From assembly GCA_964453605.1 (NCBI GenBank), contig CAYVOI010000001.1, positions 484,095-548,094 of the forward strand: a stretch of DNA of 64,000 nt, written 5' to 3'. This document shows positions 5,348 to 52,163 of the stretch, one piece after another. Each line of letters starts with the position of its first letter. Position 1 is the first letter of the stretch. Position numbers and translations under genes: made by a program. This DNA comes from an uncultured Gammaproteobacteria bacterium. Its GTDB lineage: Bacteria; Patescibacteriota; Patescibacteriia; Veblenbacterales; UBA10138. The notes under the pieces were generated by a model that was not told the DNA's origin, ran no database searches, and saw only the letters and a list, made by a program, of their open reading frames with translations.

Positions 5348-5386
5348 AGCCCTAGTCAATACATTGACTAGGGCTTGTTTTTTTAG
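5348..5386 (+). terminator. Rho-independent terminator
   Basis: GCCCTAGTCAAT-aca-ATTGACTAGGGC forms a perfect 12-bp stem and is followed by TTGTTTTTTT. Confidence 0.6.
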
Positions 5387-10350: not shown

Positions 10351-11451
10351 ATGGTGGTAACTATCTTGAGCTTCATAGCGCTCCTGGCGCTCCTGGTCCT
10401 GGCACACGAGTGGGGCCACTTTTTTGCTGCCCGCCGCTTAGGCGTGGGGGTAGAGGAGTTTGGTTTTGGTTTTCCACCGCGTATTGCAGGGTTCCGACGT
10501 GGCCAAACAACCTATACCGTAAACTGGGTACCCTTAGGCGGGTTTGTGAAGCTTAAAGGGGAGGCTGGTGGCGAACGCACAGCGGATAGTTTTGTAGTTC
10601 AGCCAGCCTGGCGCCGAGCAGTTATTCTGGTGGCAGGGGTGTTCATGAACGTGCTGTTGGCAGCCGCGCTCTTGGCGGTCGGGTTTATGGTTGGTTTCCC
10701 TGCCGTCCTGAGCGAAAACCAGGCTACACAGGCACGTAACGTACAGTTTGAGGTGGTCTCGGTAGCTCCTAGCTCTCCAGCTGCCCAGGCTGGGCTTCAG
10801 GCAGGGGATACCCTACTGACGGTTGATGGTAGGACCTTCCAGAGCGTGTCAGATTTTCAAGCGTACGTGGCAGTTCACAGGGCAAAGCCCGTAGGGGTTA
10901 CCTACCTCCATAACGGTAGTACCAAAACAGCCCAGCTGACGCCGCAGTCGCTCCCAGAAACCAATGGTCGCCCGGTGCTTGGTGTTGGATTACTGCCAAC
11001 AGGCATTATCACCTACCCGTGGTACCAGGCGCTTGGTAGAGGCGCTGCAGAAACTTGGCGTTTGGGCCGGGAGATTCTAGCGGCTTTCGGTAACCTGTTC
11101 CAAAACCTAATAGTACACCACGAGGTACCACAAAACGTAGCTGGGCCAATTGGCATTGCTGTAATCACCGGGCAAGTGGCACGTTTAGGTTTTATCTACC
11201 TTCTGCAATTTGCCGCTCTACTCTCACTCAATTTAGCCATCATAAACATTTTCCCATTCCCCGCGCTCGACGGTGGCAGGCTGCTCTTTGTTATCATAGA
11301 AAAGCTCCGGCGTAAGCCCAACAACGAGCGCGTGGTAGCTATTGTTCACCAAATCGGGTTTACCGTGCTAATTGCCCTCGTGCTCTTGGTAACCTACCGT
11401 GACGTGGCACGTTTGAGTGGAGATTTTTTTACGCGGCTCTGGGGCGCGTAA
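10351..11451 (+). CDS. rseP: RseP-type site-2 zinc metalloprotease with PDZ domain
   Basis: HEWGHFFAARRLGV (HExxH) in TM1, a central PDZ segment (GLQAGDTLLTVDG), and a C-terminal LDGG motif region. Confidence 0.85.
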   Translation: MVVTILSFIALLALLVLAHEWGHFFAARRLGVGVEEFGFGFPPRIAGFRRGQTTYTVNWVPLGGFVKLKGEAGGERTADSFVVQPAWRRAVILVAGVFMNVLLAAALLAVGFMVGFPAVLSENQATQARNVQFEVVSVAPSSPAAQAGLQAGDTLLTVDGRTFQSVSDFQAYVAVHRAKPVGVTYLHNGSTKTAQLTPQSLPETNGRPVLGVGLLPTGIITYPWYQALGRGAAETWRLGREILAAFGNLFQNLIVHHEVPQNVAGPIGIAVITGQVARLGFIYLLQFAALLSLNLAIINIFPFPALDGGRLLFVIIEKLRRKPNNERVVAIVHQIGFTVLIALVLLVTYRDVARLSGDFFTRLWGA

Positions 11452-11467
11452 ATCTACAAAGCATAAT

Positions 11468-13168
11468 CTAAGGGTTGTGGCGGCCGGCGTAGTGGAGCTC
11501 CAGCTCACGTAGGTGCTTTTGCTTATCCACCAGGAGCCGGTTGTGGTTTAGGTCCATTTGTCGGAGCAGGAGGCTCACGTGTTCACTCCCTAGGTAGTGG
11601 GGGAAAATCACATAGTCAGCGCCAGCGGCGTAGAGGTCACGGCAATCGTGCCAGGTTACCGCCGTTACGTAGACCGGGGTTTTAAGGCCTTGGTTTCTTA
11701 TGTTTTTAAGGAGTAGTAGGTTATCAGCTACGTCAGAGTTAGTAGAGATAACCATAGCGGCCTCAGGCACCCGAGCATGAGTGAGAATATCCACATCAGT
11801 CATGTCGCCGTAAAGGCAAGGTTTAGCCTGGGCAGTTAAACGGCTAATGACCGAGGGGTTAAAATCTATAACCAGCGTAGGCTTGTGCAGCTCCTCGAGT
11901 GTAATGAGCAGCCGTTCGCCCAAACGGTGGTAGCCAATCAAAACCACGTGGTTCGAAATGGCACCCGCGGTCTGTTCGGGTACGCCTCCGGCACCACCAC
12001 GCTCAAACCAAGAGAGCATAGGCTTAAGCCAGCGGTAGAACGTTTCGGCATGTGAAATGGTGAACGACATTACAGTGATGGTAACAGCCCCGACTGCCGT
12101 TACCAAAGCCACCTCATTGGGGGTTACCTGCCCCAAGCGTAAACCCATGCCCATAACAATGAACGAGAACTCAGAAATCATACCTACCGTAAGCCCCACC
12201 ATAAAGCTCGTACGCTTGCGGTAGCCTAAACTGCCCATCAGCGCCAGCACAATAAGGGGGTTGCCAACCAGCACAAACAGTACCAGCGCCCAGAAGAGCG
12301 GCTGATTGCTACCCAACCCCGCAAAGCTTAATTGGCTACCCAGGGCAATAAAAAACAAGGTAATAAAGAAATCTCGAAGGCTTCTCATGCGCGCCGAAAT
12401 TTCTAAGTTGTAGGGGAGTGAAGCCAAGCTCACCCCAGCTAGAAACGCGCCAATTTCAACTGAGAACCCGAGCGACAGGCTATTGAGCGCCACCACCAAA
12501 CACCAAGACAACGCCGCTAGTAACAGGAGTTCGGGTGAGCGTGCCAGTTTGGTGAACAGCGCAGGGAGTAATAAGCGGCTGACGATGAACGTACTTAAAA
12601 TCAGCAGTAACCCGCGCCCCAGAGCCTCAAATGCACCGCCAGCGCTCCAAACGTTCGTAGCCGCAGCGGAAGAGAGCACAATGAGTATCAGTATGGCTAC
12701 TGCGTCCTGCAGCAGCAGCATGCTTAAGGTAAGCCTGCCGGATAGGGAATCAAGTTCGTTGCGCTCAGCCAGAAGCTTGATAACAATAATGGTACTGGAG
12801 AAGGCCAAGCTCAAAGACACGTACCAGGCAGCAATGTTCCCCAGGCCGAATGAACGTACGAGCAGGTAACCTATAGCGGCAGTCAGGAGCACCTGACCCA
12901 GGCCAACAAGTGGCGCAGAGCGCCCCAGGGCTTTAAGCCTATTGAGGTCAAGCTCAATGCCTACCAAGAACAGTAGAAATGCAATGCCGAAGGTGGAAAG
13001 CGTGCTGAGTAAGGTGCCAACCGGAATCAAGTTCAGTGCACTGGGACCTAAAACCACGCCGACCAAGAGGTACGCTAGGACCGTAGGTTGTTTCAGGTGG
13101 TGAAACACAATCGCCACTGCCGTGGCCAGAACAATCAGCAGGCTGAGCTGGAAAAATGTGTCCCCCAT
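11468..13168 (-). CDS. CPA2-family monovalent cation:proton antiporter (KefB/KefC-like) with C-terminal RCK/TrkA-N domain
   Basis: 566 aa. About 12 TM helices followed by a Rossmann-type VVLIGYHRLGERLLITL segment, typical of the KefB/KefC TrkA-N domain. Confidence 0.8.
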   Translation of the reverse strand: MGDTFFQLSLLIVLATAVAIVFHHLKQPTVLAYLLVGVVLGPSALNLIPVGTLLSTLSTFGIAFLLFLVGIELDLNRLKALGRSAPLVGLGQVLLTAAIGYLLVRSFGLGNIAAWYVSLSLAFSSTIIVIKLLAERNELDSLSGRLTLSMLLLQDAVAILILIVLSSAAATNVWSAGGAFEALGRGLLLILSTFIVSRLLLPALFTKLARSPELLLLAALSWCLVVALNSLSLGFSVEIGAFLAGVSLASLPYNLEISARMRSLRDFFITLFFIALGSQLSFAGLGSNQPLFWALVLFVLVGNPLIVLALMGSLGYRKRTSFMVGLTVGMISEFSFIVMGMGLRLGQVTPNEVALVTAVGAVTITVMSFTISHAETFYRWLKPMLSWFERGGAGGVPEQTAGAISNHVVLIGYHRLGERLLITLEELHKPTLVIDFNPSVISRLTAQAKPCLYGDMTDVDILTHARVPEAAMVISTNSDVADNLLLLKNIRNQGLKTPVYVTAVTWHDCRDLYAAGADYVIFPHYLGSEHVSLLLRQMDLNHNRLLVDKQKHLRELELHYAGRHNP

Positions 13169-17627: not shown

Positions 17628-17642
17628 GCTTTTTCTAGGGCC

Positions 17643-17672
17643 AAAACCATCCGCCAATTGGCGGATGGTTTT
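17643..17672 (+). terminator. Perfect 30-nt palindrome AAAACCATCCGCCAA|TTGGCGGATGGTTTT; bidirectional terminator-like hairpin between the AT-hook gene and the dnaX promoter
   Basis: 15-bp perfect stem with A-run and T-run flanks. A sister palindrome with the same CCGCCAwwTGGCGG core is at 19566-19595. Confidence 0.45.
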
Positions 17673-17714
17673 GTATTGCCAGCGCAAGCTCCAGCGGCTA
17701 CAATGGAATGTACT

Positions 17715-19301: not shown

Positions 19302-19372
19302 TCGGGGATCGTCTAATGGTAGGACGCATGGCTCTGAACCATGTAATCTTGGTTCGAATCCAAGTCCCCGAG
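19302..19372 (+). tRNA. tRNA-Gln (anticodon CTG)
   Basis: Sequence TCGGGGATCGTCTAATGGTAGGACGCATGGCTCTGAACCATGTAATCTTGGTTCGAATCCAAGTCCCCGAG. Acceptor TCGGGGA/TCCCCGA, anticodon stem CATGG/CCATG, loop CTCTGAA, T-arm CTTGG-TTCGAAT-CCAAG. Confidence 0.85.
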
Positions 19373-19565
19373 CTCTGTGCGGGAGACGCGGAACCATGGT
19401 TTTCCCCGTATGTATGGGCTAGCGTATAGTTTGGGGTTTGCCTGTCCGCCGTAGCGTATAGCGTAGGCGGAAATCCATGCCTCCCAGCCACGAAATTTGG
19501 TTATCGGACGACCCGAGTACCTCGGGTAGCCAAGTGTCGGTAGCCAGATCGAGTGGCAACCAATT

Positions 19566-19602
19566 ACAACACCCCGCCATATGGCGGGGTGTTGTGCTAT
19601 TT
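19566..19602 (+). terminator. Perfect 30-nt palindrome ACAACACCCCGCCAT|ATGGCGGGGTGTTGT followed by a T-rich tract
   Basis: 15-bp perfect stem followed by GCTATTT. Confidence 0.45.
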
Positions 19603-25002: not shown

Positions 25003-25078
25003 AATATGGCGGGGTGAAGTAGGACGTCTGCCGGGGCCGATAATCTTGGTTCAAATCCAAGTCCCCAAACTCTGTGCA
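25003..25078 (+). repeat. Degenerate tRNA-Gln(CTG) copy (pseudo-tRNA) forming the right-hand direct repeat of the island
   Basis: GGCGGGGTGAAGTAGGACG...TAATCTTGGTTCAAATCCAAGTCCCCAAACTCTGTGC retains the acceptor-like 5' end, GTAGGACG, the T-arm and the 8-nt downstream flank of the intact gene. The anticodon arm is replaced. Confidence 0.6.
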
Positions 25079-48739: not shown

Positions 48740-50221
48740 ATGTCAGTGAGAGAAGATCAGGAACTCAAAAGCCGCCACGATAAGCTTGCTGCCTGGAAAA
48801 AGTTGGGGCTAGAGCTTTACCCGGCGAAGTTTAAGCGTACACACCAGGCTGCCGAGGTGAACTCTAAAGCCAATGCATCTGCCCCTACCTACGAAGGTGG
48901 TAGCGTAAGGGGTAAAGCAGTTTCAGTTGCGGGCAGACTTATGACCTTGAGGCCCCACGGCAGCCTGTGGTTTGCAACACTTGAGGACGTAAGTGGCACC
49001 GTGCAAGTGGTGGCAGAGGAAGGCGGCAGTGGAAAGCAGGTTTGGGAAGTGCTGCAGCTTTTAGACAGGGGAGACATTGTTGGCGTCACTGGCCCGGTGG
49101 TTAAAACCAAACGCGGGGAAATTTCGGTTTTTGTGACTGAAGTTACGCCGCTCGCTAAATGCTTGCAGCCCTTACCCGAAAAATGGCATGGGCTTAAAGA
49201 TATGGAAGCTAGACTCAGGCAGCGCTACGTTGACCTGTTGATGGACAAAGACGTCCGTGACTTATTCTTGAAGAAGTCAATTTTCTGGCACACAGTGCGG
49301 CAGGAACTTGGCCAGGCAGGTTTTATTGAAGTGGACACACCGGCGCTTGAGGCTGTGGCCGGCGGGGCAGACGCCAATCCGTTTGTAACCCACCACGACG
49401 CGCTGGATCAAGATTTCTATTTGCGCATCTCGCTTGAGCTGCCCTTGAAGCGCTTACTCGTCGGTGGGTTTGAAAAAGTGTACGAGATTGGCAAAGTGTT
49501 CCGCAACGAGGGGATCGATACTGAGCACCTGCAAGACTACGATATGTGCGAGTTCTACTGGGCCTATGCCAACTACGAAGACCTGATGGATTTCACCGAG
49601 AAACTCTACCAGTCGATTGTGAAAGCGGTGACAGGTAGTCTTAAGACGACTTATGACGGCAAAGAGGTCGACTGGTCAGGCAAATGGCCGCGGAAGGATT
49701 ACTTTGCGCTGATTAAAGAAATTTCAAAAGTGGATTTGGCAGGCATGACTGACGTTAAGGAGCTACGGAAGCTCTTGGAGAAGCACAAAGTACGCTACGA
49801 GGAAAGCATGGGTGCGGGCAGACTTATAGACCTGTTCTGGAAAAAGCTGGTGCGGCCGAAAGTGCAGGGGCCGCTATTCCTGATAAACCACCCCGTAGAG
49901 GTAAGTCCGCTTGCCAAGCGCGACCCCAAAAACCCAGAGCGTGTGCAGCGCATGCAGATACTCGTGGCGGGCAGTGAGCTGGGCAATGGCTTTAGCGAGC
50001 TTAACGACCCAGCCGATCAGCGTGCGCGCTTTGAAGAGCAGGCTAAACTCAGGGCAGCAGGGGATAGTGAGGCAATGATGCTCGACGAGGATTTTGTAAC
50101 CGCACTGGAGTACGGCATGCCCCCAGCGGCAGGCTTTGGCTTGAGCGAACGGCTGTTCAGCTTCATTATGGACAAACCAATCCGGGAAACCGTCCTCTTC
50201 CCGCCAATGAGGAGCAAATAA
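48740..50221 (+). CDS. lysS: Lysyl-tRNA synthetase (class II)
   Basis: N-terminal OB anticodon-binding domain and class II motifs 1-3 (FRNEGID..., ...GSELGNGFSELNDP, GMPPAAGFGLSERL). The start at 48740 follows an extended -10 TGTATACT; the track ORF begins at 48674. Confidence 0.9.
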   Translation: MSVREDQELKSRHDKLAAWKKLGLELYPAKFKRTHQAAEVNSKANASAPTYEGGSVRGKAVSVAGRLMTLRPHGSLWFATLEDVSGTVQVVAEEGGSGKQVWEVLQLLDRGDIVGVTGPVVKTKRGEISVFVTEVTPLAKCLQPLPEKWHGLKDMEARLRQRYVDLLMDKDVRDLFLKKSIFWHTVRQELGQAGFIEVDTPALEAVAGGADANPFVTHHDALDQDFYLRISLELPLKRLLVGGFEKVYEIGKVFRNEGIDTEHLQDYDMCEFYWAYANYEDLMDFTEKLYQSIVKAVTGSLKTTYDGKEVDWSGKWPRKDYFALIKEISKVDLAGMTDVKELRKLLEKHKVRYEESMGAGRLIDLFWKKLVRPKVQGPLFLINHPVEVSPLAKRDPKNPERVQRMQILVAGSELGNGFSELNDPADQRARFEEQAKLRAAGDSEAMMLDEDFVTALEYGMPPAAGFGLSERLFSFIMDKPIRETVLFPPMRSK

Positions 50222-50255
50222 TTATATCTTTCTTAGAAGTTTAACTACGAATATA

Positions 50256-50672
50256 ATGGGCCAAACTCCTGCCGTACCCATATCGCATCCCTCGTTATTC
50301 AGGTTAGATAAAACCAAAACGGTATTATTGTTAATGATCCCATTCCTTACCTACATTACATTCTGGAAACTTTACAATAACAACTGCGCTTATTATGGAT
50401 TAAATGGGTGCCACGAAGGAACCTATTTTACAATTGGCTGGTTCGTTTACCCACTAATCCTAATCGTTGCTGATAAGGCTGCAAATTTAGATATTGTCGG
50501 CTTAGCATCACTATTCTTTATACTGCAGTTAATTTACGCCTATATCTTGGCTACTATACTCGCTTATCTACTCCGCGCTCATCATACAGTGCTTACTACA
50601 ATAAATTGGCTGCTTTTAACAATCACGGTACTTATACTTTTGTGGTTGTTTAAGGTGTACTATCTCAGTTAA
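50256..50672 (+). CDS. Small hydrophobic protein (138 aa, about 4 TM) in AT-rich cassette 1
   Basis: ORF fills the AT-rich insert between the lysS end and the repeated lysS-terminus copy. No known motif. Confidence 0.4.
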   Translation: MGQTPAVPISHPSLFRLDKTKTVLLLMIPFLTYITFWKLYNNNCAYYGLNGCHEGTYFTIGWFVYPLILIVADKAANLDIVGLASLFFILQLIYAYILATILAYLLRAHHTVLTTINWLLLTITVLILLWLFKVYYLS

Positions 50673-50676
50673 GCTA

Positions 50677-50780
50677 ATGACCCGCGAGCAGGCTTTGACT
50701 TGAGCGAACGGCTGTTCAGCTTCATAATGGACAAGCCAATTCGGGAAACGGTCCTGTTCCCACCAATGAGAAGCAAATAG
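50677..50780 (+). repeat. 18-nt ATGACCCGCGAGCAGGCT motif fused to a 93-nt diverged copy of the lysS 3' terminus
   Basis: 50688-50780 matches 50129-50221 at about 90%. It differs at 9 positions and stays in frame: 7 changes are synonymous, 1 is Gly to Asp, and the stop changes TAA to TAG. The 18-mer recurs exactly at 51108-51125. Confidence 0.7.
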
Positions 50781-50785
50781 GGACA

Positions 50786-51040
50786 ATGTATGCTTTCCGA
50801 AGAGGAACAACGAAGAAATACGCCAATTTATTTATAAGCTCTTTAAGGGCGAAGAATAATAATTTTATGACCGAGTATATTATACTAGGAGTAGGACTAG
50901 CAATTTTTTTACTAGACGATTATCTAACCTTTTTACCAAAATCGCTTATATATATAATTGCAGCCGCAATCGGGATGGCAATACTGCATCTAGTTATAAA
51001 AGACGCCGTGAAAGAGGCAATAATAGAAACGAGACAGTAG
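50786..51040 (+). CDS. Small hydrophobic protein (84 aa or shorter, 2 TM) in AT-rich cassette 2
   Basis: ORF within the second AT-rich insert. Possible internal start MTEYIILG. Confidence 0.35.
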   Translation: MYAFRRGTTKKYANLFISSLRAKNNNFMTEYIILGVGLAIFLLDDYLTFLPKSLIYIIAAAIGMAILHLVIKDAVKEAIIETRQ

Positions 51041-51107
51041 ACCTTAATAAAAACCTAGTTTGTTTTACCTCTACCATTAACTAGGGCATCCCCATAACAC
51101 AATATAA

Positions 51108-51206
51108 ATGACCCGCGAGCAGGCTCGGACACTCGTACAAGAGAAAGTGAAAGGTGACTTCTTACGGAAGCACCTTTTGGCATCAATTTGTAGCCTATAC
51201 AACTAA
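51108..51206 (+). pseudogene. Truncated, diverged copy of the HD-domain gene 5' end (33 codons)
   Basis: MTREQARTLVQEKVKGDFLRKHLLAS... compared with MTRDKAWELVQSKVQGDFLRKHLLAS... for the intact gene at 51583. It begins with the same 18-mer as 50677. Confidence 0.5.
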
Positions 51207-51268
51207 ATCTTCACTAATTTATTACTTTCCTATTTGCCTAAATTAGAAAGCAGTAGTAATGTGGTGTT

Positions 51269-51529
51269 ATGACTGTGAATGAACGGACACTCAAGGCGCT
51301 CGCGAACAGACGCCGGCTCACTATTGTAAGCACCCTGAAACGCCGAGGTAGAGCGACGGTAGGGGATTTAGCAGCTGTTTTAAAAGTGAGCATGCCTACC
51401 GCCTCAAAGCACCTAAGCATACTGGGTGCTGCTGATGTAGTTGAATACGAGCGCCGGAGCTTGCAAGTATACTATCACTTGGCCAACGATATGCCTATCC
51501 TCGCCCGTTCAATTCTCAAACATCTCTAG
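51269..51529 (+). CDS. ArsR/SmtB-family winged-helix transcriptional regulator
   Basis: LANRRRLTIVSTL...ATVGDLAAVLKVSMPTASKHLSIL is an ArsR HTH. Confidence 0.7.
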   Translation: MTVNERTLKALANRRRLTIVSTLKRRGRATVGDLAAVLKVSMPTASKHLSILGAADVVEYERRSLQVYYHLANDMPILARSILKHL

Positions 51530-51582
51530 TCGTTAAGTGGCCTGGTGACTAGTTTCTAATTTGCCTAAATATGAAAGTGTGT

Positions 51583-52137
51583 ATGACAAGAGATAAGGCC
51601 TGGGAGCTGGTACAGAGTAAGGTGCAGGGTGATTTTTTACGGAAACATTTGTTAGCATCGGAGGCTATTATGCGCGCCTTGGCGCGCAAGTTTGGTGAGG
51701 ACGAGGAACTGTGGGGCCTGGCTGGGCTTACGCACGACATCGATTGGGAACTTACCGAGCCTACGCCTGAAAAACATTCTATAGTTGGCGCCGAGTGGCT
51801 TAAGGAAGCTGGATTCCCGCCCGAAGTGGTGGAGGCTGTGCGTGTGCACAACCACACTCACGGTTTTGAACCCAAAACACTTTTAGAAAAATCTTTGTGG
51901 TGCGCCGAGGAACTCACTGGCTTAATTGTAGCTTGTGCCTTTGTACAGCCCGATAAAAAACTCGCCAGTGTAAAGCCAGAATCAGTTTTGAAAAAGTTTA
52001 AAACCGCCAGCTTTGCCAAAGGCGTAAACCGCGAGATAGTGGGGAAGTGTCAGGAAATGATAGGGCTCTCACTACAAGAGCTAATCGAGATTGAGCTCAA
52101 AGCAATGCAAGATATAGCCCCTACCCTTGGGTTGTAG
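51583..52137 (+). CDS. HD-domain phosphohydrolase
   Basis: H...HD (GLTHDIDW) and downstream His/Asp metal ligands. The track ORF begins at 51571. The Met at 51583 aligns with the pseudogene copy. Confidence 0.65.
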   Translation: MTRDKAWELVQSKVQGDFLRKHLLASEAIMRALARKFGEDEELWGLAGLTHDIDWELTEPTPEKHSIVGAEWLKEAGFPPEVVEAVRVHNHTHGFEPKTLLEKSLWCAEELTGLIVACAFVQPDKKLASVKPESVLKKFKTASFAKGVNREIVGKCQEMIGLSLQELIEIELKAMQDIAPTLGL

Positions 52138-52163
52138 CGCTATTCTAGGCTATACTTAGGCTT

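Follow-up and report, generated by a model that had tools for sequence, protein, structure and literature searches.

We analyzed the interval between two conserved genes, lysS and an HD-domain (HDIG) gene, in a 64-kb window of contig CAYVOI010000001.1, from a genome of the Patescibacteria (Candidate Phyla Radiation [CPR]) related to Candidatus Kerfeldbacteria and Veblenbacteria. All coordinates are positions within this window, which appears as W in the multi-genome comparisons, and the genes and gene pieces of the interval and its two flanks lie on the plus strand. L-numbered sequences are contigs of related genomes; L163 is a Logan contig from an unrelated sample. The left flank is an intact gene for a class II lysyl-tRNA synthetase (lysS, 48740 to 50221; Pfam tRNA-synt_2, 1e-68, plus an oligonucleotide-binding fold) whose orthologs in relatives are 69 to 87% identical, and the right flank is an intact HD/HDIG gene (51583 to 52137; Pfam HD, 6e-10; TIGR00277 HDIG, 1.5e-12). 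Between them stand a small membrane-protein gene (orf138), a short piece of an HD gene start, a second lysS end, a stretch of low-GC DNA (cargo 2), a longer HD start fragment, and an arsR gene flanked by two predicted operators. An earlier note on this DNA had described much of this arrangement, and our base-level re-check of the window upheld its sequence claims about the interval throughout.

The last 93 nt of lysS (50129 to 50221, the functional final 30 codons plus TAA) are repeated in register 559 nt downstream, at 50688 to 50780, with nine mismatches. Self-blastn scored this repeat at E = 1.4e-30, and it is the sole diverged direct repeat in the 64 kb outside the tRNA-related ones. Base-level comparison reproduced the nine substitutions noted earlier: seven synonymous changes, one Gly-to-Asp change (GGC to GAC, repeat position 11), and a stop that changes from TAA to TAG. 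The downstream copy (copy 2) is noncoding and has no in-frame start codon. The proportion of differing sites is 0.36 for synonymous sites (pS) and 0.014 for nonsynonymous sites (pN), giving a pN/pS of 0.04 (Fisher p = 7e-5). A local duplicate decaying in place beside the constrained copy is disfavored, as the probability of at most one nonsynonymous change among eight is 0.004. From the ratio and this probability, it follows that copy 2 evolved within a working lysS elsewhere, under the purifying selection that the earlier note had proposed, and the data show that copy 2 is foreign, from a related lineage. When the direction of the nine differences was compared with relatives, the synonymous sites were too saturated to tell which copy is native, and only the Gly-to-Asp change was clearly derived.

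Copy 2 begins inside a motif that had been taken for a cassette boundary. The 18-mer ATGACCCGCGAGCAGGCT occurs only at 50677 and 51108 (50677 to 50694 and 51108 to 51125), as first reported, and is in fact a 19-mer counting the preceding A. In L187, whose LysS is 83% identical, the intact HD gene opens ATGACCCGCGAGCAGGCC and reads MTREQAWTLVQEKVKG..., matching the 18-mer at 17 of 18 bases. Judged by this comparison, the 18-mer is codons 1 to 6 (MTREQA) of an HD (HDIG) allele and not a boundary motif. As a candidate attachment (att) site it was rejected, since its 17 exact matches in viral contigs were all to unrelated MTREQA-encoding genes, with no similarity past 18 to 24 nt.

The first 18-mer (HD start fragment f1, 50677 to 50694) is the first 18 nt of an HD allele, cut off at the joint with copy 2. 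The two overlap by GCAGGCT (50688 to 50694; five G/C), a 7-nt microhomology common to HD nt 12 to 18 and lysS nt −93 to −87 that sits exactly at the joint, where the earlier note had placed it, and joins an HD start to the foreign lysS tail. Nine relatives all keep the Gly at repeat position 11, the Gly-to-Asp site lies 4 nt from the joint, and the GAC of copy 2 equals the HD sequence at that position (GCAGGCTcgGAC). The change may be a footprint of joint formation.

The recent insertion comes to 431 nt, consisting of the foreign lysS tail (86 nt), cargo 2 (about 306 nt), and an HD start. Its right end is an HD start that matches the left copy over 18/19 nt and runs on into the HD fragment and arsR module. 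A 19-nt exact direct repeat flanks the insert, and the fact that each copy is the start of the same gene accounts for it as well. Such repeats would likewise be expected had a 431-nt fragment of a relative circularized at GCAGGCT and entered by Campbell-style insertion within the 18/19-mer or the lysS end, and the HD-start/lysS-end joint does resemble the expected circle junction. However, 19 nt is very little for a RecA-dependent crossover, there is no sign that circles of this kind arise or are maintained, and the scars in relatives described below have no flanking exact repeats. We consider this route improbable.

A head-to-tail joining of two strain variants, by the assembler or through chimeric reads, was a concern raised at the outset. 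In its favor, the source genome is metagenome derived, and the two units resemble two alleles of one locus. The window structure is nevertheless matched at 100% identity by two k = 31 Logan assemblies from separate runs (SRR12313479 and SRR12313480; 20 kb and 11 kb). The longest exact run common to the repeats is 27 nt (19 nt in the 18-mer region). No shared run reaches 31 nt, and the joints therefore rest on real k-mers with no graph ambiguity. Moreover, the HD-start/lysS-end joint needs k-mers found in neither single-unit strain, and the same kinds of scar occur in relatives from unrelated studies. The exact LysS, HD, and ArsR proteins are confined to the same three contigs, in one arrangement. 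The repeats are real, and an assembly chimera is very unlikely.

The two inserts are AT rich, as reported (29 to 41% GC versus 54% for the window). Cargo 2 (about 50801 to 51106, approximately 306 nt) is 85% identical to part of the 984-nt contig L163. There, it comes after a P63C phage-type gene (PF10546, 6e-34; phrog_2384, 1e-69) and an open reading frame (ORF) of 45 amino acids (aa) with a transmembrane (TM) segment, and it has neither lysS nor HD flanks. The window keeps only the 3′ end of the 45-aa TM ORF (to about 50859), and cargo 2 thus starts inside a truncated ORF. These matches show that cargo 2 is of separate origin. The 84-aa ORF first assigned to it is the less likely gene: the real one is probably of 57 aa (50867 to 51040) with two TM segments, preceded by the remnant of the upstream ORF. 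Both cargo proteins are small membrane proteins without a family in Pfam, PHROGs, or NCBIfam. Cargo DNA had no match among annotated phages and plasmids, and the 57-aa protein had none among viral contigs. Scans for promoters and terminators gave no excess over shuffled expectation, with no terminator after lysS or either cargo.

The other small ORF fared better. orf138 (50256 to 50672), predicted to have at least two strong TM segments, has a homolog, P0123, that is 55% identical over residues 6 to 137 in an exhaustive HMMER search and lies directly downstream of lysS in L190, another species. Because the homology spans these residues, orf138 is, by sequence comparison, a genuine 138-aa gene of this locus. 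Window positions 50102 to 50690 align with L190 5866 to 6447 (65%, E = 3e-26) in a stretch that takes in the lysS end and the small gene and continues over a 4-nt gap into the HD start; the spacing of stop, 4 nt, and ATG between orf138 and the HD start is kept in L190. The alignment shows unit 1 (lysS end, orf138, and HD start) to be collinear with the other species, which makes it an apparent allele of the locus and not a cassette with a boundary motif, contrary to the earlier proposal that both units were inserted. A further protein, P0124 (141 aa, three tandem repeats), resembles orf138 residues 44 to 101 at 41% identity.

Taken as two copies of [GCAGGCT-lysS end-cargo-ATGACCCGCGA], the locus has exactly the structure that a microhomology-bounded tandem duplication yields. 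Replication slippage at the 7-mer, or an unequal exchange between sisters there, could have produced it, with one copy later overwritten by a foreign cargo 2 allele, and allelic replacement clearly occurs at lysS-HD. This history needs two events where one suffices, though, and the overwriting would have been limited to the 93-nt lysS end and the HD start as arms. The two cargoes are dissimilar, and divergence in place is rejected by the same probability of 0.004. Unequal crossing-over at the 7-mer, which the earlier note had raised, fails, if followed by in-place divergence, to explain the unrelated cargo and the synonymous bias. Duplication followed by overwriting is possible but unlikely.

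The second 18-mer does continue as an HD fragment, as stated earlier, with a length and identity that differ from those first given. Fragment f2 (51108 to 51206) consists of 26 HD-like codons (51108 to 51185) that align with the resident HD at 77% amino acid identity, followed by a diverged tail and a stop, for an ORF of 32 codons. Between it and the intact HD gene at 51583 lies, as the earlier note had it, an ArsR/SmtB-family helix-turn-helix (HTH) regulator gene, arsR (51269 to 51529; Pfam HTH_5 and HTH_20; NCBIfam NF033788, 1e-20). A 28-nt repeat (51223 to 51250 and 51550 to 51577), on which the earlier note is silent, flanks arsR. In L006, L011, and L083 the corresponding element reads ACTACTTTCCTATTT-GCCT-AAATAGGAAAGTAGT, with 15-nt arms and a 4-nt spacer, and the palindrome is 78 to 95% conserved, whereas the adjacent spacers are 0 to 41% identical, save for one L011-L083 pair at 72%. 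On this pattern of conservation, the repeat is a conserved palindromic ArsR operator. Operator 1 is predicted at 51221 to 51257, slightly degenerate in the window, and operator 2 at 51548 to 51580, immediately 5′ of the intact HD gene; neither is assigned a strand. With a winged-HTH ArsR protein and a conserved palindrome 5′ of its own gene, the locus has the makeup of an autoregulated ArsR/SmtB module. Operator variants without arsR occur in L189, where they mark later insertions into the operator. In L006, an arsR paralog stands on each side of HD (11018 to 11278 and 11953 to 12213; 80% and 59% identical to the window ArsR), and L003 and L190 have only the downstream paralog.

The order HD fragment, spacer, operator, arsR, operator, HD is common to the window, L006, L011, and L083, and L190 retains the HD fragment, spacer, and half an operator. 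The spacers between fragment and operator carry a weak common motif, and in L011 and L083 they stay HD-like to about codon 33; the HD fragment/operator junction thus looks like one old junction. By alignment, the resident HD belongs to a "KVQG" allele class that goes together with arsR. In the closest relatives (L184, L185, and L187), arsR is missing upstream, fragments are absent, and the HD is intact and of the "KVKG" class like that of the window fragments. This pattern indicates that an arsR-HD module of the KVQG class displaced an older HD gene and stranded its 5′ end. The HD fragment was earlier assigned to the same series of events as the two units; it belongs instead, with ArsR, to an older and separately inherited module found in at least four other genomes.

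We compared 14 complete lysS-HD intervals from related genomes, plus three partial contigs. The contents differ in all 14. Among the relatives' cargo are DUF5674, DUF3800, a 23S-IVP protein, AF_1845, and many small low-GC membrane proteins without known family, and none of it encodes a recombinase. HD 5′ fragments and/or lysS tail pieces occur in 8 of the 14 intervals and in the three partial contigs. The scars are all short, about 38 to 93 nt for lysS tails and 18 to 132 nt for HD starts, and the HD breakpoints are scattered, at nt 18, ~22, 63, 63, 69, 78, ~84 to 100, and 132. HD nucleotide identity is 61 to 68% over nt 1 to 75 and 78% over nt 61 to 90, with which the clustering of breakpoints (nt 63 to 100) coincides weakly. 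Most fragments are remote from the HD gene beside them: identity to the genome's own HD is 48 to 67% in seven of nine cases (81 to 83% for those in L003 and L008). Fragments come nearest to functional HD starts of other genomes, as for the L083 fragment with L186 (84%) and the L190 fragment with L008 (87%). Displaced gene-end remnants are kept with older cargo in the window and in 8/14 relatives, as in sequential displacement. No HD 3′-end or serS 5′-end fragments were found.

In L003, L006, L009, and L190, a gene called orf121 runs in frame into a lysS tail of about 38 nt at its end. A frameshifted copy occurs in L083, and orf121 has its native end in L186 and L189. The microhomology at these joints is a single Arg codon, too short and diverged to judge. 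This inserted gene lies downstream of DUF5674 and its final stretch is a displaced lysS terminus of ~12 codons (L003 10155 to 10217, L006 10151 to 10213, L009 10276 to 10338, L190 7251 to 7313, and L083 169 to 214). The L009 tail carries the variants of L009's own lysS (RETT…DN). In L085 (4157 to 5641), lysS matches fall in three frames, the apparent frameshifts being sequencing errors or a sign of a pseudogene.

Scars that recur at these two gene ends across many genomes, together with directly repeated gene termini, are features that small integrative cassettes would share if they used an att site over the lysS 3′ or HD 5′ end, had their recombinase encoded elsewhere, and each carried a substitute gene terminus; a displaced tRNA-Gln 3′ half elsewhere in the window shows that this genome has integration scars. 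The earlier idea of tandem accretion of such elements does not stand. The breakpoints vary, from HD nt 18 to 132 and from lysS −38 to −93, the cargo is unrelated between genomes, and its pieces are truncated genes. The 18-mer is ordinary coding sequence whose viral-contig matches arise by chance, and unit 1 is not demonstrated as an insert. No integrase is encoded in the cargo, and no recombinase family was recorded for genes at 41.3 to 61.5 kb, about 9 kb on each side of the locus. An inverted-repeat search returned the arsR operators only, with no hairpin sites at cassette ends. Cassette integration is accordingly a quite remote prospect, and what is borne out of the earlier proposal is repeated accretion at the locus with no recombinase nearby.

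Our favored reading, to which we give a probability of about 0.6, is that the lysS-HD repeats are scars of foreign versions of the locus spliced beside the resident one by additive, homology-anchored illegitimate recombination, akin to homology-facilitated illegitimate recombination (HFIR). The lysS-HDIG interval would be a recombination hot spot in this clade of Patescibacteria. DNA with a different interval "allele" would be taken up from related lineages and would normally swap for the resident one through homologous recombination in both conserved flanking genes. Occasionally, only one end would find enough homology, and the other would be joined illegitimately at a short microhomology. 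The outcome would be addition rather than replacement, with a short lysS 3′ or HD 5′ piece stranded in the interval. One-sided illegitimate joining would explain the scattered breakpoints, and the scars would all be short because an end with long homology recombines without a remnant.

For the window, we infer DNA uptake, a one-sided anchor, and the following order of events. lysS-orf138-HD would be the old allele. An arsR-operator-HD module would have displaced the old HD long ago, sparing its first ~26 to 33 codons. Recently, a linear [lysS′ tail-cargo 2-HD start...] from a close relative would have become anchored on the HD-fragment/arsR side, its other end being joined at GCAGGCT with the addition of 431 nt. 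A mirror version is equally possible, in which an incoming lysS-orf138-HD(1-18), anchored in lysS, was joined into the resident lysS tail.

The copy 2 joint fits HFIR as defined in PMC3240628: GCAGGCT is within the microhomology of about 3 to 10 nt found at HFIR joints, and the joined DNA is foreign, as indicated by the constrained copy 2 (pN/pS, 0.04) and by the 85% match of cargo 2 to DNA beside a P63C gene. Natural competence has been demonstrated in Saccharibacteria, and com genes are reported to be conserved across the CPR (PMC10633639), by analogy with which DNA uptake by the source organism would be plausible. For the stacked immunity genes and effector remnants at Vibrio type VI secretion system (T6SS) loci and for Rhs orphans, the same logic has been proposed (PMC5361080). 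We would thus be dealing with a known process in a new setting, as a natural recombination outcome in an understudied phylum.

Several points weigh against this reading. We found no donor genome with lysS′-cargo 2-HD and no single-cassette strain of the species, and the states before and after the insertion are therefore inferred. A 60-nt HD-fragment anchor downstream of the joint would be shorter than the anchors of HFIR experiments. If those 60 nt alone are too short, the donor must also carry the arsR-HD module. According to the literature, HFIR is rare in experiments, and scars in 8 of 14 intervals would then imply very frequent exchange or selection that retains old cargo. A site-specific or Campbell-type insertion would likewise give 19-nt exact repeats around a 431-nt insert. 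The com-gene support comes from other CPR bacteria, and the window covers 64 kb of this genome. Finally, a pure scar model does not predict that the 26-codon fragment would be conserved. These initial codons of the HD fragment are open in five lineages, with a pN/pS of 0.17 to 0.39 and a pS lower than that of arsR, and the fragment stays conserved where the flanking spacers are randomized. In L011 (10703 to 10744), a 42-nt, GC-rich, partly palindromic in-frame insertion (…CCGCCCCGCTGGGCGGGG…) lies within the old HD fragment, and the ORF is open.

This conservation can be read in two ways. The fragment may be repeatedly overwritten as a homology arm during cargo exchange, which fits the resemblance of fragments to other genomes' HD genes, or it may be translated and constrained. 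The conservation also gives rise to a rather doubtful alternative, that the HD 5′ fragment is a maintained element and that the gene ends act as recombinase-free landing pads, capturing and stacking small membrane-protein genes from relatives and phages. Selection could then possibly act on stacked cargo that serves as immunity or defense genes, or the fragment may be translated as a leader peptide. If true, this would be an integron-like capture site run purely by transformation and host recombination.

Some other repeats and a variable site stand apart from the lysS-HD interval. The HD-serS interval is also variable: it is 26 nt in the window (52138 to 52163) and holds 1 to 3 kb in relatives (L003 12583 to 15508 and L186 6812 to 8697), where the genes include NUDIX genes, one of Ham1/RdgB type, and a second arsR. 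This interval yielded no gene-end fragments. Elsewhere in the window, the 3′ half of tRNA-Gln(CTG) (19302 to 19373) plus 7 nt downstream (19344 to 19380) recurs at 25041 to 25077, 5.7 kb away, with 92% identity. A displaced end of this kind is what integration leaves, and the genes between the copies encode a radical SAM protein, a PNP/UDP phosphorylase, an ABC-F ATPase, and a uridine kinase, with no integrase or recombinase found among them. Self-comparison also gave a perfect 32-nt palindrome (17642 to 17673), a perfect 30-nt palindrome (19566 to 19595), and a near-perfect 28-nt palindrome (5348 to 5375).

Patescibacteria are almost entirely uncultivated, and gene exchange among them is largely inferred. 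The locus is a clean natural record of such exchange, with a microhomology joint, a foreign constrained gene tail, and the native allele alongside. It shows interval alleles swapped and occasionally stacked between lineages without mobile-element machinery, a pattern that transformation with one-sided recombination would give. With comparable scars in 8 of the 14 relatives, lysS-HD stands out across the clade as a hot spot for small accessory genes. In practical terms, the case warns that a repeated gene end or an operator palindrome can pass for an att site or a cassette boundary.

The closest known process is HFIR as seen during natural transformation in Acinetobacter baylyi, Streptococcus pneumoniae, and Pseudomonas stutzeri (PMC3240628), where one end of the incoming DNA is homologous and the other is joined at a short GC-rich microhomology, so that foreign DNA is added next to the anchor and the scars are short. 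HFIR was seen experimentally, whereas the events described here are deduced from natural genomes of an uncultivated phylum. The foreign DNA at lysS-HD is itself another version of that locus, which gives the product the look of a tandem array, and the apparent frequency across species is far above laboratory HFIR rates. The effector-immunity arrays of the Vibrio cholerae T6SS and the orphan 3′ arrays of Rhs and contact-dependent inhibition loci are similar in that a conserved flank serves as the anchor, old modules are pushed along, gene-end remnants are left, no integrase is present, and HFIR has been proposed (PMC5361080). Unlike those arrays, the interval described here is bounded by housekeeping or regulated genes (lysS and HDIG) and not by toxin genes, and both flanking genes are scarred. 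The cargo consists of small membrane proteins and DUFs.

Phage 21 and e14 at icd, as well as islands that target tRNA and tmRNA genes, integrate at a gene end and bring a substitute terminus. They, too, leave a diverged 3′-end duplicate beyond the insert with mostly synonymous differences, but the lysS-HD locus has no integrase and no fixed crossover site, and its inserts, made up of truncated genes, span a few hundred bases. With integron cassette arrays it shares co-oriented, mostly promoterless small genes gathered at one site by a conserved sequence; it has no IntI, attI, or attC, and the boundaries are fragments of the flanking genes. The regulatory part of the locus resembles autoregulated ArsR/SmtB operons, with an inverted repeat (15-nt arms and a 4-nt spacer) 5′ of arsR and a second copy 5′ of HD, and it differs from them in that the predicted target is an HDIG protein and in that the operator pair could be read as cassette repeats.

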